Below, one piece after another: positions 8,559 through 32,000 of a stretch of 32,000 nucleotides of DNA (its first letter is position 1; every line of letters starts with the position of its first letter). The translations under genes and the position numbers were made by a program. Source of the stretch: Bacilli bacterium (GTDB taxonomy: Bacteria > Bacillota_I > Bacilli_A > RF39 > UBA660); NCBI GenBank assembly GCA_017442305.1, contig JAFRZY010000006.1, forward strand, positions 95,880 to 127,879, in the 5' to 3' direction. The notes below the pieces were generated by a model. The model did not search any database. It worked only from the letters and a program-made list of their open reading frames with translations, and was not told where the DNA came from.

Positions 8559-8586
8559 AAAAAAATAGTTAACATTTGTTAACTAT
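8559..8586 (-). terminator. rho-independent terminator
   Basis: 9-bp stem atagttaac / gttaactat (8565-8573 / 8578-8586), 4-nt loop. A T-run follows on the minus strand. It overlaps the stop codon of the 8583..9899 gene. Confidence 0.65.
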
Positions 8587-9899
8587 TCTATTACAATTTC
8601 ATATGGTGAGTTTGTATCTATTCTTCCGTTACCAGTAAATGTTACATTACCTTTTAAGTTAATAACTGGGCGAACACCTAAAGATTCAAATGCAGCCGAT
8701 GTACTAATTAAAGTACCCCTTAAAAGCCAAGCATTTGCGGTTCCGTCATTACAGCTACTAGGTGAGGAAGTCCAATAACTTTCACCACTATACAAATAAT
8801 GTGTCTCCCAACCATCTATTGCTCCGGCAAACACAATCTCATCTGCAGTTAATAATCCTACCGGATTATTTAATAAACCATTACCTTTCTTTTCGCTTGT
8901 TGTATATCTATCACTTTTGTTTGTACATTTCAATTCAGGACTTTTGACTTCTACTCTCCATGTAGGACCATAGTTTATACCTACTGATACAGCTAGCGCT
9001 GGATTGTCAATTAAATCAAAGTTATAATCATAATAATCATAACTTTGTATTTCACGATCATTACAAAAGATACCATCTGCTATATATTTTTCGTAGTTTT
9101 CTTTTAGATTAGCTTCATACCAGTCATCTACTACACCTTTAATTGTACTATCTGTTTCAACACCATTTACATCATATGTATATCCTACATATTTAGTATC
9201 ATCTGCATCTCCATTATACGCGGTACTCGCAATGGATGCTGTATGTGCTACTCCATTAGCTATCGGACTTGTTCCATCATAAATCATACGAATGGTTCCG
9301 TCGCCATTAATTCTGATGATTCGCCAATACATTGAATCATTATTTGAATTAAAACCAAATTTTACATAATTATTCGTAGACCCTCCTCTAAAATAGTAAG
9401 AAGTTCCTAAATCATCTTCGGCTTTATATAAATTAGTATTTGCCTCATGAGCTGATGTATCAAAATTTGGAGTGGTTTCAACTATGGTACTATTAGCTAT
9501 AATTGCTTTAGCAAGAGCTCCTAGTTCATTAAAATACATTGTGCATTTTTCTTTTCCGTTTAATCCTTCAATTTCTGCTTTGCCATTAACATAATTTATA
9601 GTTGCGCCATTTACACAATAACTCTTTTCCAAATCAAAAACATAACCTTCTGTTGGTATCTCTTCAACATAGTTTACAGTACCATCTTCTTCAACTAGTT
9701 TAACCGCAATAGTTAAATCTCTTTTTTCAAAAAAATCTATATTACCTTTTAAAATGTTATATGAATTGGTAACTTTGTAAGCTGCATATGTTCCGTATAT
9801 GGTTACACCAATTAATAAAAACATTACTACTAGGCCCGCTATAATCAACGGTTTCTTTTTGTTTTCTTTAATTTTATAATTAAATTTTTTTAATCCCAT
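8583..9899 (-). CDS. membrane-anchored surface protein, non-diversified paralog of the DGR target; C-terminal DUF1566/DUF6273-like (CLec-like) module
   Basis: 438 aa. N-terminal TM anchor (LIIAGLVVMFLLIGVTIYGTYAAY). The central block MYWRIIRINGDGTIRMIYDGTSP...YEKYIADGIFCNDREI is about 84% identical (my hand count, about 95 aa) to ORF 31278..31928. C-terminal motif YWTSSP...GVRPVINLK. Confidence 0.7.
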   Translation of the reverse strand: MGLKKFNYKIKENKKKPLIIAGLVVMFLLIGVTIYGTYAAYKVTNSYNILKGNIDFFEKRDLTIAVKLVEEDGTVNYVEEIPTEGYVFDLEKSYCVNGATINYVNGKAEIEGLNGKEKCTMYFNELGALAKAIIANSTIVETTPNFDTSAHEANTNLYKAEDDLGTSYYFRGGSTNNYVKFGFNSNNDSMYWRIIRINGDGTIRMIYDGTSPIANGVAHTASIASTAYNGDADDTKYVGYTYDVNGVETDSTIKGVVDDWYEANLKENYEKYIADGIFCNDREIQSYDYYDYNFDLIDNPALAVSVGINYGPTWRVEVKSPELKCTNKSDRYTTSEKKGNGLLNNPVGLLTADEIVFAGAIDGWETHYLYSGESYWTSSPSSCNDGTANAWLLRGTLISTSAAFESLGVRPVINLKGNVTFTGNGRIDTNSPYEIVIE

Positions 9900-16849: not shown

Positions 16850-18749
<1,900 letters not shown>

Positions 18750-28013: not shown

Positions 28014-28763
28014 TTAAATAATTAAAGATAGTAATATTATTATTACACCTGTAATTATACCACAATATATCTCTTTATGCTTGCGGTTATTATAAATTTC
28101 CGGTAAGAACTCAAAGAAAGCCAGATAAATGATCATTCCTAAAGTTAAACATGAAATAATTCCTAAGAAAAGTTCATTAATATTTCCAAATAATGATACC
28201 AAAAGAGCTCCGAAAAGACTTGATAACGCTAAGGCAGTAATTAAAACTTTATTAAAACCTTTTTTATTGCGTTCTTTCGATAATGATATAGCTATTTCAA
28301 TTCCTAAAGGTATATTGTGAAGCGCTACACCAATACACATAAATAAGCCTAGTTTTATATTGTTAGTAGCTAAGCTATAAATTGCTATTCCTTCTATAAT
28401 ATTATGCAAGAAAAGCGAAATTAATGTAACTATACCAATATGGTAAACATGAGAGTTATGTTCTTCATGAATATCTTCTTCATCTTTATGTTCATGATGA
28501 TGAGCGGGTATGAAACAGTCTAAAACTTTTAGAACACCTAACCCTCCTAAAATTAATAATATAGCAATAAAATATGTACCTTTAAAAATTTCTATAACCT
28601 CTGGAATTAGATCAAATATTATTAAATTTAACATAACCACGAAAGCTAAAGAAATAGCAAAATATGATAACTTATCTTTATTTTTTATTTTACTTGTAAT
28701 AACATATCCTATAACAAAAAACAATCCTGATATTAATGCTAAAAGTAATCCTAATAATTTCAT
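28014..28763 (-). CDS. ZIP family divalent metal transporter
   Basis: His-rich loop HHHEHKDEEDIHEEHNSH. LHNIIEGIAI and ALHNIPLGIEIA motifs of the ZIP/ZupT family. The ATG at 28763 is preferred over the TTG at 28793. Confidence 0.85.
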   Translation of the reverse strand: MKLLGLLLALISGLFFVIGYVITSKIKNKDKLSYFAISLAFVVMLNLIIFDLIPEVIEIFKGTYFIAILLILGGLGVLKVLDCFIPAHHHEHKDEEDIHEEHNSHVYHIGIVTLISLFLHNIIEGIAIYSLATNNIKLGLFMCIGVALHNIPLGIEIAISLSKERNKKGFNKVLITALALSSLFGALLVSLFGNINELFLGIISCLTLGMIIYLAFFEFLPEIYNNRKHKEIYCGIITGVIIILLSLII

Positions 28764-28830: not shown

Positions 28831-29970
28831 TTAATTATAAGTTTCTGTAAGTGATGCTTTAAAACTTTTACTGTCCGCAATATTTAAATACCCGTTATAG
28901 TTTTTTATAATTTCTAAACAATCTTCATTATTCTTATTAGCTTTTTTTAAGCGTTTTTTTATTCTTTTTTTTGTTTTAGCGCTAAGTAAAATATGTAATC
29001 TTTTATTCTTTAACAAAAATTTATACCCTAAAAACGGTAATCCTGATTCTAAATCATATATTTGAGTTTTATTATTAATTTTTAATTTATATTTTTTTAC
29101 TTCCTCTTCAATTGCTACTATACATTTTCTTAAAAAATCTTTATTCGGATCTATTATAACTAAATCATCCATATAACGTATATAATATTTTGCATGCAAC
29201 TTTTCCTTTATAAAATGGTCTAAATCATTCAAATAATATATTGCTAAAATTTGACTAGTCATATTCCCAATGGGCAATCCCTTGCCTTTAACATAATATG
29301 GAATGTTGTTTAACTCAGAAATCTTTAGCTTTTTCTCATTATTGCTAATTTTCATATTCATAACTGCTTTTTTTTGCTTAATTATAGTATTATAAATAAT
29401 ATTATTTACATAATCTTCATCAGTACTTTTAATCATGTTTTTTATTAATGCATATATTTCTTGATCAGCTATTAAACTTTTTAACTTATCAAGTAATATT
29501 TCATGATCAATAGAATAAAAAAACTTTTCTATATCGCATTTTAAAGCATAAATTTTTTGATTTTTATTTTTTAATTTATTAACATATTTTAAAAGATAGT
29601 TTATTGCTTCTTTAGTTCCTTTATTTTTTCTAGTTGCAACATTTGTATTAATAAGCTGAGGTTCAATAAGTGGAAATAATACATATTTACTTATTAGATG
29701 ATTAACAACTTTATCTACCATACATTCGCTCATTATTATACGTTTTTTTGGCTTAGTAATAAGAAAAATATTATATTTACTATGTTTATACGTTCTAGTT
29801 TCCAACAAATTATAAACATTGGTTAAATTACTACTAAAAAATAATTCAAATTTAAATAATTTATCTTTATTCTTTGTGTGTTTTCTTATTAAGAAATACA
29901 TTAGTTTAATTTTATTAATATCAATTAAATCAGTGTAATTAATCTGATTTTTGGTTTCTGAGAATTCCAT
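28831..29970 (-). CDS. DGR reverse transcriptase
   Basis: 379 aa. Motifs are LKCDIEKFFYSIDH (motifs 1-2), LPIGNMTSQILAIYYLNDLDHF (the (I/L/V)GxxxSQ motif 4 characteristic of DGR RTs), YIRYMDDLVII (YMDD at 29164-29175) and PFLGYKF. There are no maturase or endonuclease domains. The start overlaps avd by 32 nt. Confidence 0.9.
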   Translation of the reverse strand: MEFSETKNQINYTDLIDINKIKLMYFLIRKHTKNKDKLFKFELFFSSNLTNVYNLLETRTYKHSKYNIFLITKPKKRIIMSECMVDKVVNHLISKYVLFPLIEPQLINTNVATRKNKGTKEAINYLLKYVNKLKNKNQKIYALKCDIEKFFYSIDHEILLDKLKSLIADQEIYALIKNMIKSTDEDYVNNIIYNTIIKQKKAVMNMKISNNEKKLKISELNNIPYYVKGKGLPIGNMTSQILAIYYLNDLDHFIKEKLHAKYYIRYMDDLVIIDPNKDFLRKCIVAIEEEVKKYKLKINNKTQIYDLESGLPFLGYKFLLKNKRLHILLSAKTKKRIKKRLKKANKNNEDCLEIIKNYNGYLNIADSKSFKASLTETYN

Positions 29971-30292
29971 ACGTTATTTTCCTTATTTCCACAATAAAAT
30001 TACTACTCGATGTATATTGTTTTTTACTTATAATCTTTTTTTCATAACTTACATTCATATAATAATCTAACATTGATAACTTTACTATAATATCTTTCAA
30101 ATATTTTTCCTTAATACGTTGATTAGTATTAATATTGTAAGAAAAAATTAATTCAACTAGAATATATAAATTTTTTTCAATTGAATCAATTAACACTCTT
30201 TCTTTATTCGGAAAATTTATTAGCAAACGATTTATATAAGCAGAAGTTTTTTTTGTATTATTTAAAAGATTAAAATTATAATTCATTGACAT
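29939..30292 (-). CDS. avd: DGR accessory variability determinant (Avd-like four-helix-bundle protein)
   Basis: 117 aa, helical and basic, placed immediately upstream of and overlapping the RT. FPNKERVLIDSIEKNLYILVELI resembles the FPK-E..L..Q...A motif of the Avd / 23S-rRNA-IVS protein family. Confidence 0.7.
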   Translation of the reverse strand: MSMNYNFNLLNNTKKTSAYINRLLINFPNKERVLIDSIEKNLYILVELIFSYNINTNQRIKEKYLKDIIVKLSMLDYYMNVSYEKKIISKKQYTSSSNFIVEIRKITYGILRNQKSD

Positions 30293-30701
30293 ACTCTAAA
30301 ATACGATGATAATTATGTTTATCAGCATCTATCTTATTACTAATTTGTTTAAATAAACTTGCAAGATCTTCTGCTTTTTTCATAGCCTTTAAGGCTTTTT
30401 TAATAACACTAATATAATTATTATTTTTATTAAATGTTGTTAAAAAATAACTATCTTTCTCTATTATAAGATAATCAATGTTTAAGGATTTTAATTTTAA
30501 TTTAATTTTTTCTGCAATTGAAATAGGAAACCCCACTCTATTGTCTATTATTTTATAGCCAAACAAATAATTCATCAAAGTAGCATCTTCTAAAAAAGTA
30601 TAGAAAAAATTACCTGAATGAATTAAAACTAGGGTTTCCTTATAATTATTTTTATATGATAAATATGTATTTGCTAATTTCACAGCAAAGTCTCCTTTCA
30701 T
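30276..30701 (-). CDS. MutS domain-I-like small protein (MSL-type DGR accessory ORF)
   Basis: 141 aa. KLANTYLSYKNNYKETLVLIHSGNFFYTFLEDATLMNYLFGYKI...RVGFPISIAEKIKLKLKSLNIDYLIIEKD aligns by eye to the MutS N-terminal mismatch-binding domain (MMQQYL..K..YPD.ILFFRMGDFYELF.DDA...L.I.LT...IPMAGVP......Y...L...G..VAICEQ). The true start may be GTG 30683, 8 nt after AAGGAG, because no RBS precedes the ATG at 30701. Confidence 0.6.
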   Translation of the reverse strand: MKGDFAVKLANTYLSYKNNYKETLVLIHSGNFFYTFLEDATLMNYLFGYKIIDNRVGFPISIAEKIKLKLKSLNIDYLIIEKDSYFLTTFNKNNNYISVIKKALKAMKKAEDLASLFKQISNKIDADKHNYHRILEYVNEL

Positions 30702-30717
30702 TTAAAATATAGCAATA

Positions 30718-30744
30718 GTCACATAACTAAAAAAGTTATGTGAC
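30718..30744 (-). ncRNA. perfect 10-bp hairpin in the TR-to-accessory-gene spacer (candidate structural element of the DGR RNA)
   Basis: gtcacataac (30718-30727), loop taaaaaa, gttatgtgac (30735-30744). It lies 17 nt upstream of the MSL ATG. No T-run follows on the minus strand, so it does not look like a terminator. Confidence 0.4.
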
Positions 30745-30902
30745 GTCTATATTTATATATTTAGGTAACTAATACTGCTCATTACCAGGGAATAATCTTG
30801 TTTCCAATCTAAATAGATTACTATATAAATAGTTACTTCCTCTCATTATAAGCCTTAACTTATAACCCTCAGAATTAGTAATTTACTAACATTAGTAGGA
30901 AT

Positions 30903-31018
30903 CTGGGCGCGCACCAGGGTTGTCATTGTTGACGTTGTTGTTGTTGACATTGCCATCGTTATTGACATACCACGCATTCGCATTGTCGTTGTCATCGTTG
31001 AAGTTATACGGAGCGGAA
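30903..31018 (-). repeat. DGR template repeat (TR)
   Basis: 116 nt homologous to 31177-31293. The coding-strand frame reads SAPYNFNDDNDNANAWYVNNDGNVNNNNVNNDNPGARP, with 15 Asn codons (10 AAC + 5 AAT). It is noncoding, since a stop follows 4 codons after the homology. It ends in the GC-rich CCCTGGTGCGCGCCCAG. Confidence 0.9.
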
Positions 31019-31057
31019 AAAAGCACGCTTTTATATAGACTATCCCCAAAATTCATT

Positions 31058-31081
31058 CCCAAAACGAAGAGTCGTTTTGGG
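31058..31081 (-). terminator. hairpin between target gene stop and TR (possible terminator of the target gene)
   Basis: 9-bp stem cccaaaacg / cgttttggg with a 6-nt loop. On the minus strand it is followed by AAUGAAUUUU, a weak U-tract. Confidence 0.4.
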
Positions 31082-31099
31082 AAATTATTTCTTATCTTT

Positions 31100-31345
31100 T
31101 TATTTTACTACAATGGTATATTCTGAACCTATCTGTCCATTTCCTTCAAACTGAACATCAGCTTTCAGATTGATAACTGGGCGCGCACCAGGGAAGTCAT
31201 AGTTGACGCTGTAGTTGCTGACATCGCCATCGTTACCGACAGACCACGCACTCGCATCGCCGTCGCCATCGTAGAAGTTAATGGGGAGCGGAAGTCCAAT
31301 ACATTTCATTGCTATACAGATAATATGTACTGTTGCCTGCCACAT
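31100..31345 (-). CDS. C-terminal, VR-containing fragment of the DGR target (variable) protein, in a different frame from the upstream part
   Basis: The frame encodes ...INFYDGDGDASAWSVGNDGDVSNYSVNYDFPGARPVINLKADVQFEGNGQIGSEYTIVVK*. This is homologous to the C-terminus of the paralog 8583..9899 (GVRPVINLKGNVTFTGNGRIDTNSPYEIVIE*). The annotated Met start is probably not real. Confidence 0.7.
   Translation of the reverse strand: MWQATVHIICIAMKCIGLPLPINFYDGDGDASAWSVGNDGDVSNYSVNYDFPGARPVINLKADVQFEGNGQIGSEYTIVVK
31177..31293 (-). repeat. DGR variable repeat (VR) at the 3-prime end of the target gene
   Basis: 117 nt aligned to TR with an offset of +274. In the core (31194-31273) there are 16 mismatches, all at positions where the TR coding strand has A. 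The shared GC-rich 17-mer at the 3-prime end (31177-31193) is a candidate IMH core. Confidence 0.9.
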
Positions 31346-32000
31346 TATTTCCTCCTGCTAAATATGCTTCATCTGCTGTTAATAAACCAACCGGATTTGA
31401 TAATAACCCATTTCCTAATGATTCACTTGTTGTATATCTATCACTTTTATTTGCGCATGTTAATTCTGGTGCTTTATTATCTCCTAATCTGCCCATTGGG
31501 CCATAATATTCATTTGTATATACTGCAGCATTTGGATCTGTTGTTACTGACCAATCTTCATTTAAATATTCATACTTATATATTTCTCTATCGTTGCAGA
31601 AAATAGAGTCTGCTATATATTTTTCATAATTCTCTTTTAAGTGTTCTTCATACCAATCATCTACTACACTTTTAATTGTACTATCTGTTTCAACACCATT
31701 TACATCATAAGTATATCCTACATATTTTGCTTCGTTATAATCTGTGTTATATGCTGTATTTGCTATTGTTGCTGTATGAGAAACTCCATTTTCTACAGGT
31801 GATGTCCCATCATAAATCATACGAATTGTTCCATCACCATTAATTCTAACAATTCGCCAATACATTGGTGTTCCTGACGCCACTTCAACTTCTTTTGTTG
31901 TCCAATTATTATAATCATATACTGTCAACGTTGTATCTTTCGCATATGTTCCAAATTTGACATAGTTGTTGGTTGGTGCTCCTCTAAAGTAATAACTAAT
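31278..32000 (-). CDS. N-terminal/central part of the DGR target protein (5-prime end lies beyond the window; terminated by TAA inside the VR 5-prime edge)
   Basis: The frame is open to position 32000 (..SYYFRGAPTNNYVKFGTYAKD.. upstream of the ORF-track Met). It is about 84% identical to paralog 8583..9899 across MYWRI..CNDREI. It ends ...EMYWTSAPH*, where the paralog continues YWTSSPSS... Confidence 0.75.
   Translation of the reverse strand: MSYYFRGAPTNNYVKFGTYAKDTTLTVYDYNNWTTKEVEVASGTPMYWRIVRINGDGTIRMIYDGTSPVENGVSHTATIANTAYNTDYNEAKYVGYTYDVNGVETDSTIKSVVDDWYEEHLKENYEKYIADSIFCNDREIYKYEYLNEDWSVTTDPNAAVYTNEYYGPMGRLGDNKAPELTCANKSDRYTTSESLGNGLLSNPVGLLTADEAYLAGGNNVAGNSTYYLYSNEMYWTSAPH

Follow-up and report, generated by a model that had tools for sequence, protein, structure and literature searches.

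A chromosomal MSL-class diversity-generating retroelement, probably competent, whose target gene is frameshifted at the 5' junction of the variable repeat in an uncultured Bacilli bacterium

When the variable repeat (VR) of a diversity-generating retroelement (DGR) lies outside the reading frame of its own target gene, the question arises whether the sequence is wrong, the whole element has decayed or the target alone has been lost. This question is raised by positions 28831-32000 of a stretch of 32,000 nucleotides (nt) from contig JAFRZY010000006.1 (GenBank assembly GCA_017442305.1, positions 95,880 to 127,879 of the forward strand), which is referred to as the window and which reaches to the contig end; its source is a metagenome-assembled genome (MAG) of an uncultured, low-GC (guanine plus cytosine) member of the Bacilli from animal gut or rumen, annotated "Bacilli bacterium". 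There, all co-oriented on the minus strand, the target gene with its VR is followed by the template repeat (TR) with an adjoining structured RNA, by the accessory genes msl and avd and by the gene for the reverse transcriptase (RT). A preliminary description of this DNA had reported a complete DGR; the DGR was substantiated and the attribute complete had to be given up, as the target frame was found to be broken at the VR 5' junction. It is considered highly likely that the locus is a chromosomal DGR of the MSL class that has been inherited vertically and is probably still competent, and that the target belonging to it is now a pseudogene or in an OFF state. In the following, contigs and loci used for comparison carry L-numbers and proteins of the target family carry P-numbers.

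Comparison of the two repeats carries much of the argument. The ungapped core of 104 nt contains 16 mismatches between TR and VR, each of them at a TR adenine, which with 37 adenines among the 104 nt of the TR core corresponds to a hypergeometric p of 4.9e-9. When read in the frame of VR, each of these changes affects the first or second codon position, whereby the AAY-rich template NFNDDNDNANAWYVNNDGNVNNNNVNNDNPGARP was turned into NFYDGDGDASAWSVGNDGDVSNYSVNYDFPGARP in VR; the virtual frame of TR reads SAPYNFNDDNDNANAWYVNNDGNVNNNNVNNDNPGARP and is rich in AAY codons. When the full 117-nt alignment is considered, 16 of 18 substitutions reside at adenines and one indel is added, the exceptions being confined to a lesion of 6 nt. 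At its 5' end VR has an anchor of 9 nt, TTCCGCTCC (31293-31285), which is followed by the lesion (31284-31280) and then by the core (31280-31177). At the other end the GC-rich sequence CCTGGTGCGCGCCCAG, which occurs twice in the window where no copy is expected by chance, closes both TR and VR, and the repeats diverge directly after CCCAG; CCTGGTGCGCGCCCAG is a putative 3' boundary common to both, resembling an initiation of mutagenic homing (IMH) site. TR was found to be identical in the contigs L004, L005 and L006. A second or remote VR was sought in the window and not found, and a metagenome scan with a species-specific 28-nt VR-flank pattern gave no match.

The proteins encoded next to the repeats fit this picture. 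The RT matches Pfam RVT_1 (3.8e-21) and holds the motifs IGNMTSQ (residue 234) and YMDD (residue 266), the SQ dipeptide having been reported as characteristic of DGR RTs (PMC3521204). Its closest solved structure is that of the Bordetella bRT (8ub7_A, E 5.1e-24), the top group II intron RT reaching 1.5e-12, and it retains all columns that are invariant across 16 RT homologues. The adjoining Avd is a basic protein (pI 9.7) that matches Pfam bAvd PF22296 just above threshold (3.7e-10, 40.7 bits, cut-off 40) and NCBIfam DivGenRetAVD below it (1.4e-10, 41 bits, cut-off 80), while a single-sequence search of the PDB with Avd returned noise only; its open reading frame (ORF) extends across the MSL stop at one end and the RT start at the other. 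Together with the adenine-confined TR/VR differences and a covarying RNA that flanks TR, the type of RT and the presence of Avd strongly support the DGR identity of the element. Several statements of the preliminary description were borne out by these data, namely the co-oriented minus-strand block with RT, Avd and a MutS_I ORF, both RT motifs, the distance between VR and TR (exactly 158 nt) and the appearance of TR and VR as GC-rich islands (GC content 0.47 and 0.58 as compared to 0.28 for the window); the computed TR/VR alignment, which it had named among the results able to refute it if no adenine bias appeared, is the one given above, with 16 of 16 core differences at adenines.

Where the preliminary description had taken the last roughly 115 nt of the target gene for VR, the target ORF was found to end with ...NEMYWTSAPH at a TAA codon (31280-31278), that is at the VR 5' edge, and VR together with the following 75 nt of C-terminal coding sequence (natural stop codon 31102-31100) lies in the +1 frame. 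Because the target loses its frame at the 5' junction of VR, the protein is translated without VR. Precisely, the VR 5' end reads TTCCGCTCC-CCATT-AAC as compared to TTCCGCTCC-GTAT-AAC in TR, so that two bases other than adenine are substituted (G>C and T>C) and one nucleotide is added. These changes all fall within 6 nt, at a distance of 9 nt from the point where TR/VR homology starts on the 5' side, and create the premature TAA. The displaced segment, whose C-terminal peptide is ADVQFEGNGQIGSEYTIVVK, matches the hidden Markov model of the target family as an ORF of its own in three sequences only, namely the window, L004 and L005; an in-frame allele at the junction would, as the counterpart of CCCCATTAAC, be of the CCGTNTNNC type.

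An exact look-up of the RT protein, which is present in identical form on 6 contigs, provided four other contigs of the same strain that are 99.98-99.99% identical to the window, and all four differ from it by one single-nucleotide polymorphism (SNP) at 28471. Two of them, L004 and L005, span the whole cassette and show the identical premature stop, lesion and VR. A VR in frame with its target gene, as expected of a DGR target, was therefore found in none of the three copies, and the recurrence of stop and lesion in L004 and L005 renders the lesion very probably real. The same contigs supplied what the preliminary description had advised to recover from beyond position 32000: the full target ORF, which comprises 572 amino acids (aa) and begins with an N-terminal hydrophobic anchor, and, in L004, the flank of the cassette with the genes for an Asn synthase and a sulfatase. 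The product of the window's target is 100% identical to a partial protein of 240 aa at NCBI (P0001), for which an exact-sequence look-up returned no contig.

Related cassettes show what the junction looks like when it is intact. In 22 of 22 of them VR resides in frame inside one ORF of the target family, which identifies the out-of-frame VR as a strain-specific lesion and not as another architecture, and the lesion is absent from the 19 relatives that could be aligned at this junction: there, the anchor matches perfectly right after YWTxSP, indels do not occur and non-adenine mismatches are unclustered. Two of the relatives, L012 and L014, with RTs 72-75% identical, hold the cassette at the same chromosomal position, where msl, avd and RT are followed by genes for a ZIP transporter, an epimerase, a patatin and YebC, from which vertical inheritance of the element in this lineage follows; a further one, L016, with an RT 59% identical, is located at a different site. 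In all three the target C-terminus runs in frame through VR (e.g., ...YWTSAPYSFDGYGAYVWYV...GARPVINLK...), and in the gapless alignments of L014 and L016 all TR/VR differences (about 21 and 22) are at TR adenines. In L012 (358-470 versus 631-743) VR exceeds TR by one codon near the 3' third, an in-frame indel, and an ungapped alignment of the two loses register after about 83 nt.

As zero non-adenine differences are found in the 104 nt outside the lesion, the knockout of the target is judged to be recent. Its consequence can be gauged from the structural model of an in-window paralogue of the target, where the corresponding YWTSSP occupies residues 375-380 of 438: judged by this model, the truncation would remove about 58 residues and with them five or six strands of the domain, and the truncated product probably lacks the variable surface and may fail to fold. 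The lesion may have arisen spontaneously or through faulty resolution of the 3' end of the complementary DNA (cDNA) at the short 5' anchor.

The wider distribution of such cassettes was assessed by an alignment-based GTDB scan with the RT, which yielded 80 further loci, mostly from uncultured gut Bacilli (CAG:451, CAG:776, CAG:822 and CAG:956 types; rumen and rabbit MAGs), then from Clostridia; a GTDB genome scan with the RT as single protein had returned no close relative, the source species being absent from that collection. A scripted survey of about 95 related loci identified Msl in 62 and Avd in 76 of them, adenine-biased TR/VR pairs in more than 50, and VR carried by the same target family, each time by one ORF, in 22. 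Among these loci the position of Msl varies: in L040 (1440-2981), L044 (4405-5958) and L046 (2169-3725) it is fused to the RT C-terminus in one ORF, recalling the MutS_I-like RT extensions of Wu et al. 2018 (PMC5758913), and in L029, L037-L039 and L042 msl is located downstream of RT instead of upstream. In L029 (2925-3600) several apparent tandem TR-like or VR-like copies that end in GGCTACGGCGTTCGCCCAATTTCCAAAA were observed; either a set of templates or duplications of the 3' end of VR could account for them.

The RNA around TR provides evidence of a different kind. Strong conservation is seen over the approximately 200 nt that separate TR from msl. This segment contains a helix formed by UUCC (30901-30898) and GGAA, a hairpin at 30867-30844 that covaries and has the loop UUAAGG, a GUAAC hairpin, an AAUC/GAUU pairing, the conserved sequence GAUUGGAAAC, the 3' arm of a long-range duplex (30798-30788) and a long terminal hairpin (30765-30707). 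An RNAalifold consensus of 14 loci comprises 23 pairs, 12 of them with compensatory changes; 96.6% of its cells are paired, as compared to 26-48% when the partners are slid by 1-3 columns, and none of 500 shuffles reached the observed values in four of five measures, the covariation score included. The terminal hairpin is not among the 23 scored pairs and was identified by visual comparison and a single-sequence fold. Folding of the whole putative transcript furthermore predicts a duplex of 11 bp that brackets TR, with GGGGAUAGUCU (31047-31037) as 5' arm and AGAUUAUUCCC (30798-30788), which falls just after the invariant GAUUGGAAAC, as 3' arm. An equivalent duplex of 10-13 bp, at the same relative positions and with differing sequences (e.g., GGATTAATCA/TGATTAATCC and AGGGATTAACCTT/AAGGTTAATTCCT), is found in 11 of the 14 loci; it resembles the 'cPRT Stop' duplex of the Bordetella DGR RNA as seen by cryo-electron microscopy, and comparable TR-flanking elements were reported for 207 of 278 Avd-type DGRs. 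Essentially, the copy in the window retains the conserved nucleotides and pairings of this RNA scaffold.

Between the natural target stop and TR a further hairpin is located (31083-31056), which was considered as target-recognition cruciform of the DGR and rejected in favour of a terminator; this is the simpler reading because the hairpin, at 93 nt from VR, adjoins the stop codon and has a T-run behind it. A hairpin after the target stop was also found in L012, L014, L016 and in eight metagenome contigs described below (L098-L105). Its core, AAAAYGA.TC.TCRTTTT, is conserved across species, the outer stem bases differ, the hairpin occurs even where no TR follows and its sequence conservation exceeds the needs of a terminator.

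The ORF between TR and avd, which the preliminary description had regarded as an extra MutS-like ORF, turned out to be the published accessory MSL/Msl. As an accessory family of DGRs, MSL was defined by Wu et al. 2018 (PMC5758913), who found it in 16 of 372 DGRs, always together with avd (architecture D), and also mentioned three RTs with MutS_I-like C-terminal extensions; Msl was subsequently reported for Bacteroides DGRs by Macadangdang et al. 2024 (bioRxiv 10.1101/2024.11.15.621889). Here, Msl matches Pfam MutS_I above threshold (2.5e-5, 24.9 bits, cut-off 20.6). A single-sequence PDB search with Msl returned noise only, and a profile built from 28 Msl orthologues was required to reveal the match to MSH6 and MutS (best E 3.6e-5), in which MSL positions 4-75 align to residues 14-94 of E. 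coli MutS, its N-terminal region. The Phe of the GxF motif is invariant among Msl orthologues, and the position matching the Glu of the MutS F-x-E motif is, as read from the alignment, variable. Judged by orthologues and gene calls, the true msl start is probably GTG 30683, 8 nt after AGGAG (30696-30692). The protein is basic with a pI of 9.3, as compared to an average of about 7.2 in the 2018 set (PMC5758913). When the cassette ORFs were scanned against Pfam, HRDC was not matched. The cassette is thus an MSL-class DGR of architecture D, with a stand-alone MutS_I protein and avd and without HRDC.

As regards the target, the preliminary description had not recognised its family, and indeed no Pfam family was found above threshold for the target itself, which belongs to a family of more than 1,654 members. 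Its affiliation was approached through the in-window paralogue P0007, for which DUF6273 is matched weakly (E 0.067), weak or partial matches in the family falling on the C-terminal YW..SP...RPV.NL module and reaching threshold in some relatives, and through the distant homologue P0048, which passes Pfam DUF6273 (25.2 bits, cut-off 23.5). An AlphaFold2 model of P0007 (pLDDT, the predicted local distance difference test, 90.1) shows a transmembrane (TM) helix and two domains, one small and of beta type, the other globular and about 290 aa in size. With this model, the only significant Foldseek match in the PDB is the immunoglobulin A (IgA) peptidase of Thomasclavelia ramosa (9qa6), whose N-terminal domain is annotated DUF6273, and the best viral matches are DUF6273 phage proteins. 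DUF6273 proteins were reported as DGR targets, the domain being likened to C-type lectin (PMC10743442). By the fold of its paralogue, the target family hence appears to resemble DUF6273 domains, and the target would be a membrane-anchored member of a putatively DUF6273-like family that is common as DGR target in gut Bacilli. The TM anchor claimed in the preliminary description lies outside the part of this gene present in the window and is found in the full copies of L004 and L005 and in the paralogue (8583-9899), while the motif string WRIIRINGDGTIRMIYDG, likewise assigned to the target, belongs to the paralogue, the DGR target itself reading WRIVRING... Some relatives carry a prepilin-type N_methyl signal.

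P0007 itself adjoins no DGR part and has no similarity to TR; it is located about 21 kb away between the genes for a Clp ATPase and a DcuC-type transporter. At least one further paralogue (P0025) is held by the same MAG, and a sister species possesses two tandem copies at the paralogue position (L009). The closest target homologues were expected next to DGRs, which does not hold true for P0003, P0009 and P0013; the family hence consists of general surface proteins of which only some are DGR targets. That members are diversified in nature is indicated by eight human-gut metagenome contigs of another species (L098-L105), identified with a relaxed VR-flank pattern, in which a family member shows near-identical flanks and hypervariable in-frame VRs. 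These VRs fall into at least two length or sequence classes, and as no TR is found within about 400 nt downstream, the DGR concerned is probably remote.

Based on these data and in analogy to characterised DGRs, the following sequence of events is suggested. A transcript spanning TR and the flanking scaffold would be bound by RT and Avd, reverse transcription would misincorporate opposite TR adenines and the resulting cDNA would replace VR. In the surface protein, which is anchored in the membrane, VR would account for the C-terminal strands of a DUF6273-like domain. Msl, as a stand-alone MutS mismatch-binding domain, may act on the cDNA:VR heteroduplex; it is speculated that it shields this mismatch-dense heteroduplex from mismatch repair. 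In Bacteroides, host MutS was reported to reduce retrohoming 5-10 fold in an all-or-nothing manner (bioRxiv 10.1101/2024.11.15.621889). The 16 adenine-only changes in VR would be the trace of past homing. As TR still covers the lesion, later homing with a crossover in the 9-nt anchor could repair the frame. A low probability is assigned to the idea that the lesion itself is a by-product of retrohoming, the cDNA 3' end having been resolved with errors at the short 9-nt anchor; with the frame restorable by later homing, the DGR would then be an ON/OFF switch as well as a diversifier.

Several points weigh against a competent element with a lost target. The three assemblies that show the lesion are essentially one strain (99.98-99.99% identical) and hence not fully independent, the lesion is read from assemblies, so that a recurrent assembly error in the CCCC run is conceivable, and the identity of VR in all three would fit a quiescent or dead element or plain clonality just as well. 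Competence is probable as judged from the sequence of one strain. Furthermore, a terminator-like hairpin lies just upstream of TR, and the Msl residue equivalent to MutS Glu38 is not conserved, the proposed role of Msl being a conjecture.

One alternative would be a working DGR with an intact target, in which the extra base results from a homopolymer miscall or a chimeric VR consensus. Indeed the lesion resides in a CCCC run at the border of a repeat that is hard for assemblers, contigs break nearby (the window ends in the target, L006 starts at TR and L007 in avd) and all assemblies derive from one strain; yet the identical three-change lesion is present in three assemblies with three contig-naming schemes, of which L004 and L005 assemble cleanly through VR, the SNP at 28471 implies that the underlying reads are probably not identical, and a homopolymer error would not produce G>C and T>C in addition, so that an artefact is regarded as quite improbable. 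Decay of the whole element, of which the frameshift would be one step, is judged unlikely as well. It would be in line with the broken target, the VR shared by every assembly and the existence of non-adenine TR/VR differences, and inactivated DGRs with clean TR/VR pairs are on record (PMC3521204), but RT, Avd and MSL are full-length, all invariant RT columns are kept, the RNA scaffold retains its conserved nucleotides and pairings, and with zero non-adenine mismatches in 104 nt any inactivation must have been very recent. It is the retained scaffold and the intact RT, Avd and Msl ORFs from which continued competence of the machinery is argued.

Little probability is likewise given to a reversible OFF state, brought about by aberrant cDNA integration and overwritable by homing, or to +1 recoding on CCC-C. 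As the lesion falls 9 nt within the homologous stretch, counted from the 5' side, and is thus covered by TR, the correcting information is contained in TR; three changes in 6 nt look like a single event, and ribosomes slipping by +1 at CCC-C would regain precisely the proper frame (SAP-I-NFYDG...). Neither lesion nor slippery site is conserved, as they occur in 0 of 19 aligned relatives, a stimulatory element is missing, the stop being located one codon past the slip site and no Shine-Dalgarno-like sequence being present, and no assembly shows an in-frame revertant allele; programmed +1 frameshifting was therefore judged unlikely when considered by itself. The notion that the locus is no DGR at all, its RT being that of a group II intron, of a retron or of an Abi/DRT defence system and the repeat a coincidence, is effectively refuted. 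The NCBIfam matches that would speak for it, to group II RT/maturase (TIGR04416, 109.7 versus a cut-off of 300), Drt3a (72 versus 200), Drt2 (55 versus 390) and retron St85 (37 versus 235), are all far below threshold, the best solved relative is bRT, Avd adjoins the RT, adenine-only TR/VR differences have a p of 5e-9 and recur as adenine-biased pairs in more than 50 related loci, and no intron or retron RNA was identified by Rfam in the window. A probably competent DGR with a recently frameshifted target is hence the preferred explanation of the locus, whose features are compiled in Table 1.

Table 1. Positions of the cassette parts and of the target paralogue in the window
Feature	Positions	Strand	Remarks
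DGR reverse transcriptase	28831..29970	-	379 aa, intact ORF, Pfam RVT_1
Avd accessory protein	29939..30292	-	117-aa ORF; start used by gene callers 30286 (115 aa); Pfam bAvd PF22296
MSL/Msl (MutS-like) accessory protein	30276..30701	-	141 aa from ATG 30701; likely true start GTG 30683 (135 aa)
Structured non-coding RNA (Sp-like) directly 3' of TR	30707..30902	-	14-locus alignment and covariation
TR, non-coding	30903..31018	-	116 nt; repeat family D1, alignment to VR
5' arm of predicted TR-bracketing duplex	31037..31047	-	GGGGAUAGUCU; single-sequence fold and 11/14 loci
Terminator-like hairpin	31056..31083	-	12-bp stem, 4-nt loop, then T-rich run; between natural target stop and TR
Displaced target C-terminal coding segment	31100..31279	-	NFYDGDGDASAWSVGNDGDVSNYSVNYDFPGARPVINLKADVQFEGNGQIGSEYTIVVK, then stop; +1 frame relative to gene; holds VR core
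VR	31177..31293	-	117 nt; 9-nt anchor, lesion and 104-nt core
Target gene, last 240 codons before premature stop	31278..32000	-	N-terminus past contig end
Frameshift lesion at VR 5' junction	31280..31284	-	VR CCCCATTAAC versus TR CCGTATAAC
In-window target paralogue P0007	8583..9899	-	438 aa; 58% identical, C-terminus intact

The surroundings of the cassette were described in the preliminary description as housekeeping and not prophage, which was found to be correct: the other 28 kb of the window encode LysS, a Clp ATPase, a Mur ligase, Dus, YebC, a ZIP transporter, a sortase and others, phage or integrase genes were not found among them, and housekeeping genes also adjoin the cassette on its far side, as shown by the Asn synthase and sulfatase genes mentioned above. 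The cassette is chromosomal, not part of a prophage, and inherited at a fixed site. Scans of the window for tRNA genes and Rfam families found none. Two other loci were recorded. A tandem array at 16976-17251, within a plus-strand ORF (16878-17402), shows periods of 27 nt and 81 nt (Tandem Repeats Finder), its consensus units read as collagen-like Gly-X-Y triplets, and its copy number differs between the window and the same-strain contig L001, where BLAST alignments break and overlap. The minus-strand ORF at 17439-18749 (436 aa) has no Pfam match above threshold and faint Ig-like or surface-protein-type matches only, and is conserved in other assemblies of the strain.

With 62 of about 95 loci, the Msl-type cassette is dominant in a large DGR clade of uncultured Bacilli and Clostridia from gut and rumen, and the many natural Msl variants, including RT fusions, are material for working out the function of Msl. 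The one chromosomal site at which the element is inherited across species allows for a clean orthologous comparison of TR, VR and RNA scaffold. The locus moreover is a natural case in which the target and not the RT was knocked out, exactly at the 5' integration junction; should in-frame and out-of-frame alleles coexist, this would bear on how the poorly understood cDNA 5' integration end is resolved.

In comparison with known systems, the locus resembles the MSL DGRs of Wu et al. 2018 (PMC5758913) and those of Bacteroides (Bfr, Bth and Bun; bioRxiv 10.1101/2024.11.15.621889) in possessing a small MutS-domain-I protein next to avd without HRDC, a single co-oriented cassette and adenine-specific TR/VR differences; one MSL of this published set belongs to a Legionella DGR. 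It differs from them in its host, an uncultured low-GC member of the Bacilli, in the order target-TR-msl-avd-RT, in the higher pI of Msl and in its target, which is a probably DUF6273-like membrane-anchored protein instead of a type V pilus tip adhesin or lipoprotein and moreover is frameshifted. As in the prototype, the DGR of Bordetella phage BPP-1 (mtd-avd-TR-brt), which holds the closest solved RT, Avd is the partner of the RT, VR lies near the target C-terminus and the 3' end of VR and TR is GC-rich, whereas the present element is chromosomal and not phage-borne, its TR precedes the accessory genes instead of lying between avd and brt, Msl is added, and no hairpin directly follows VR, the nearest one, 93 nt downstream, being terminator-like. 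The target domain of Mtd adopts a C-type lectin fold. The Foldseek matches of the paralogue model link the target family to DUF6273 DGR targets known from gut phages ('tentaclins' and Mtd-like proteins; PMC10743442) and to the N-terminal DUF6273 domain of the T. ramosa IgA peptidase (9qa6, PMC12402451), from which it differs in being sub-threshold in Pfam, in the larger domain of about 290 aa and in an N-terminal membrane anchor (or N_methyl in relatives) where these possess phage tail or peptidase modules. Finally, the inactivated DGRs of Schillinger et al. 2012 (PMC3521204) share with the locus a point lesion next to almost purely adenine-mutated TR/VR pairs, which implies a recent event; there the RT was hit, by nonsense mutation, frameshift or insertion of an insertion sequence, while here RT, Avd and Msl are intact and the lesion is in the target, precisely at the 5' junction of its VR. 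RT, Avd, Msl, adenine-specific TR/VR differences and a DUF6273-like target have thus all been described before, and the frameshift at the junction is the one unusual point of this element.

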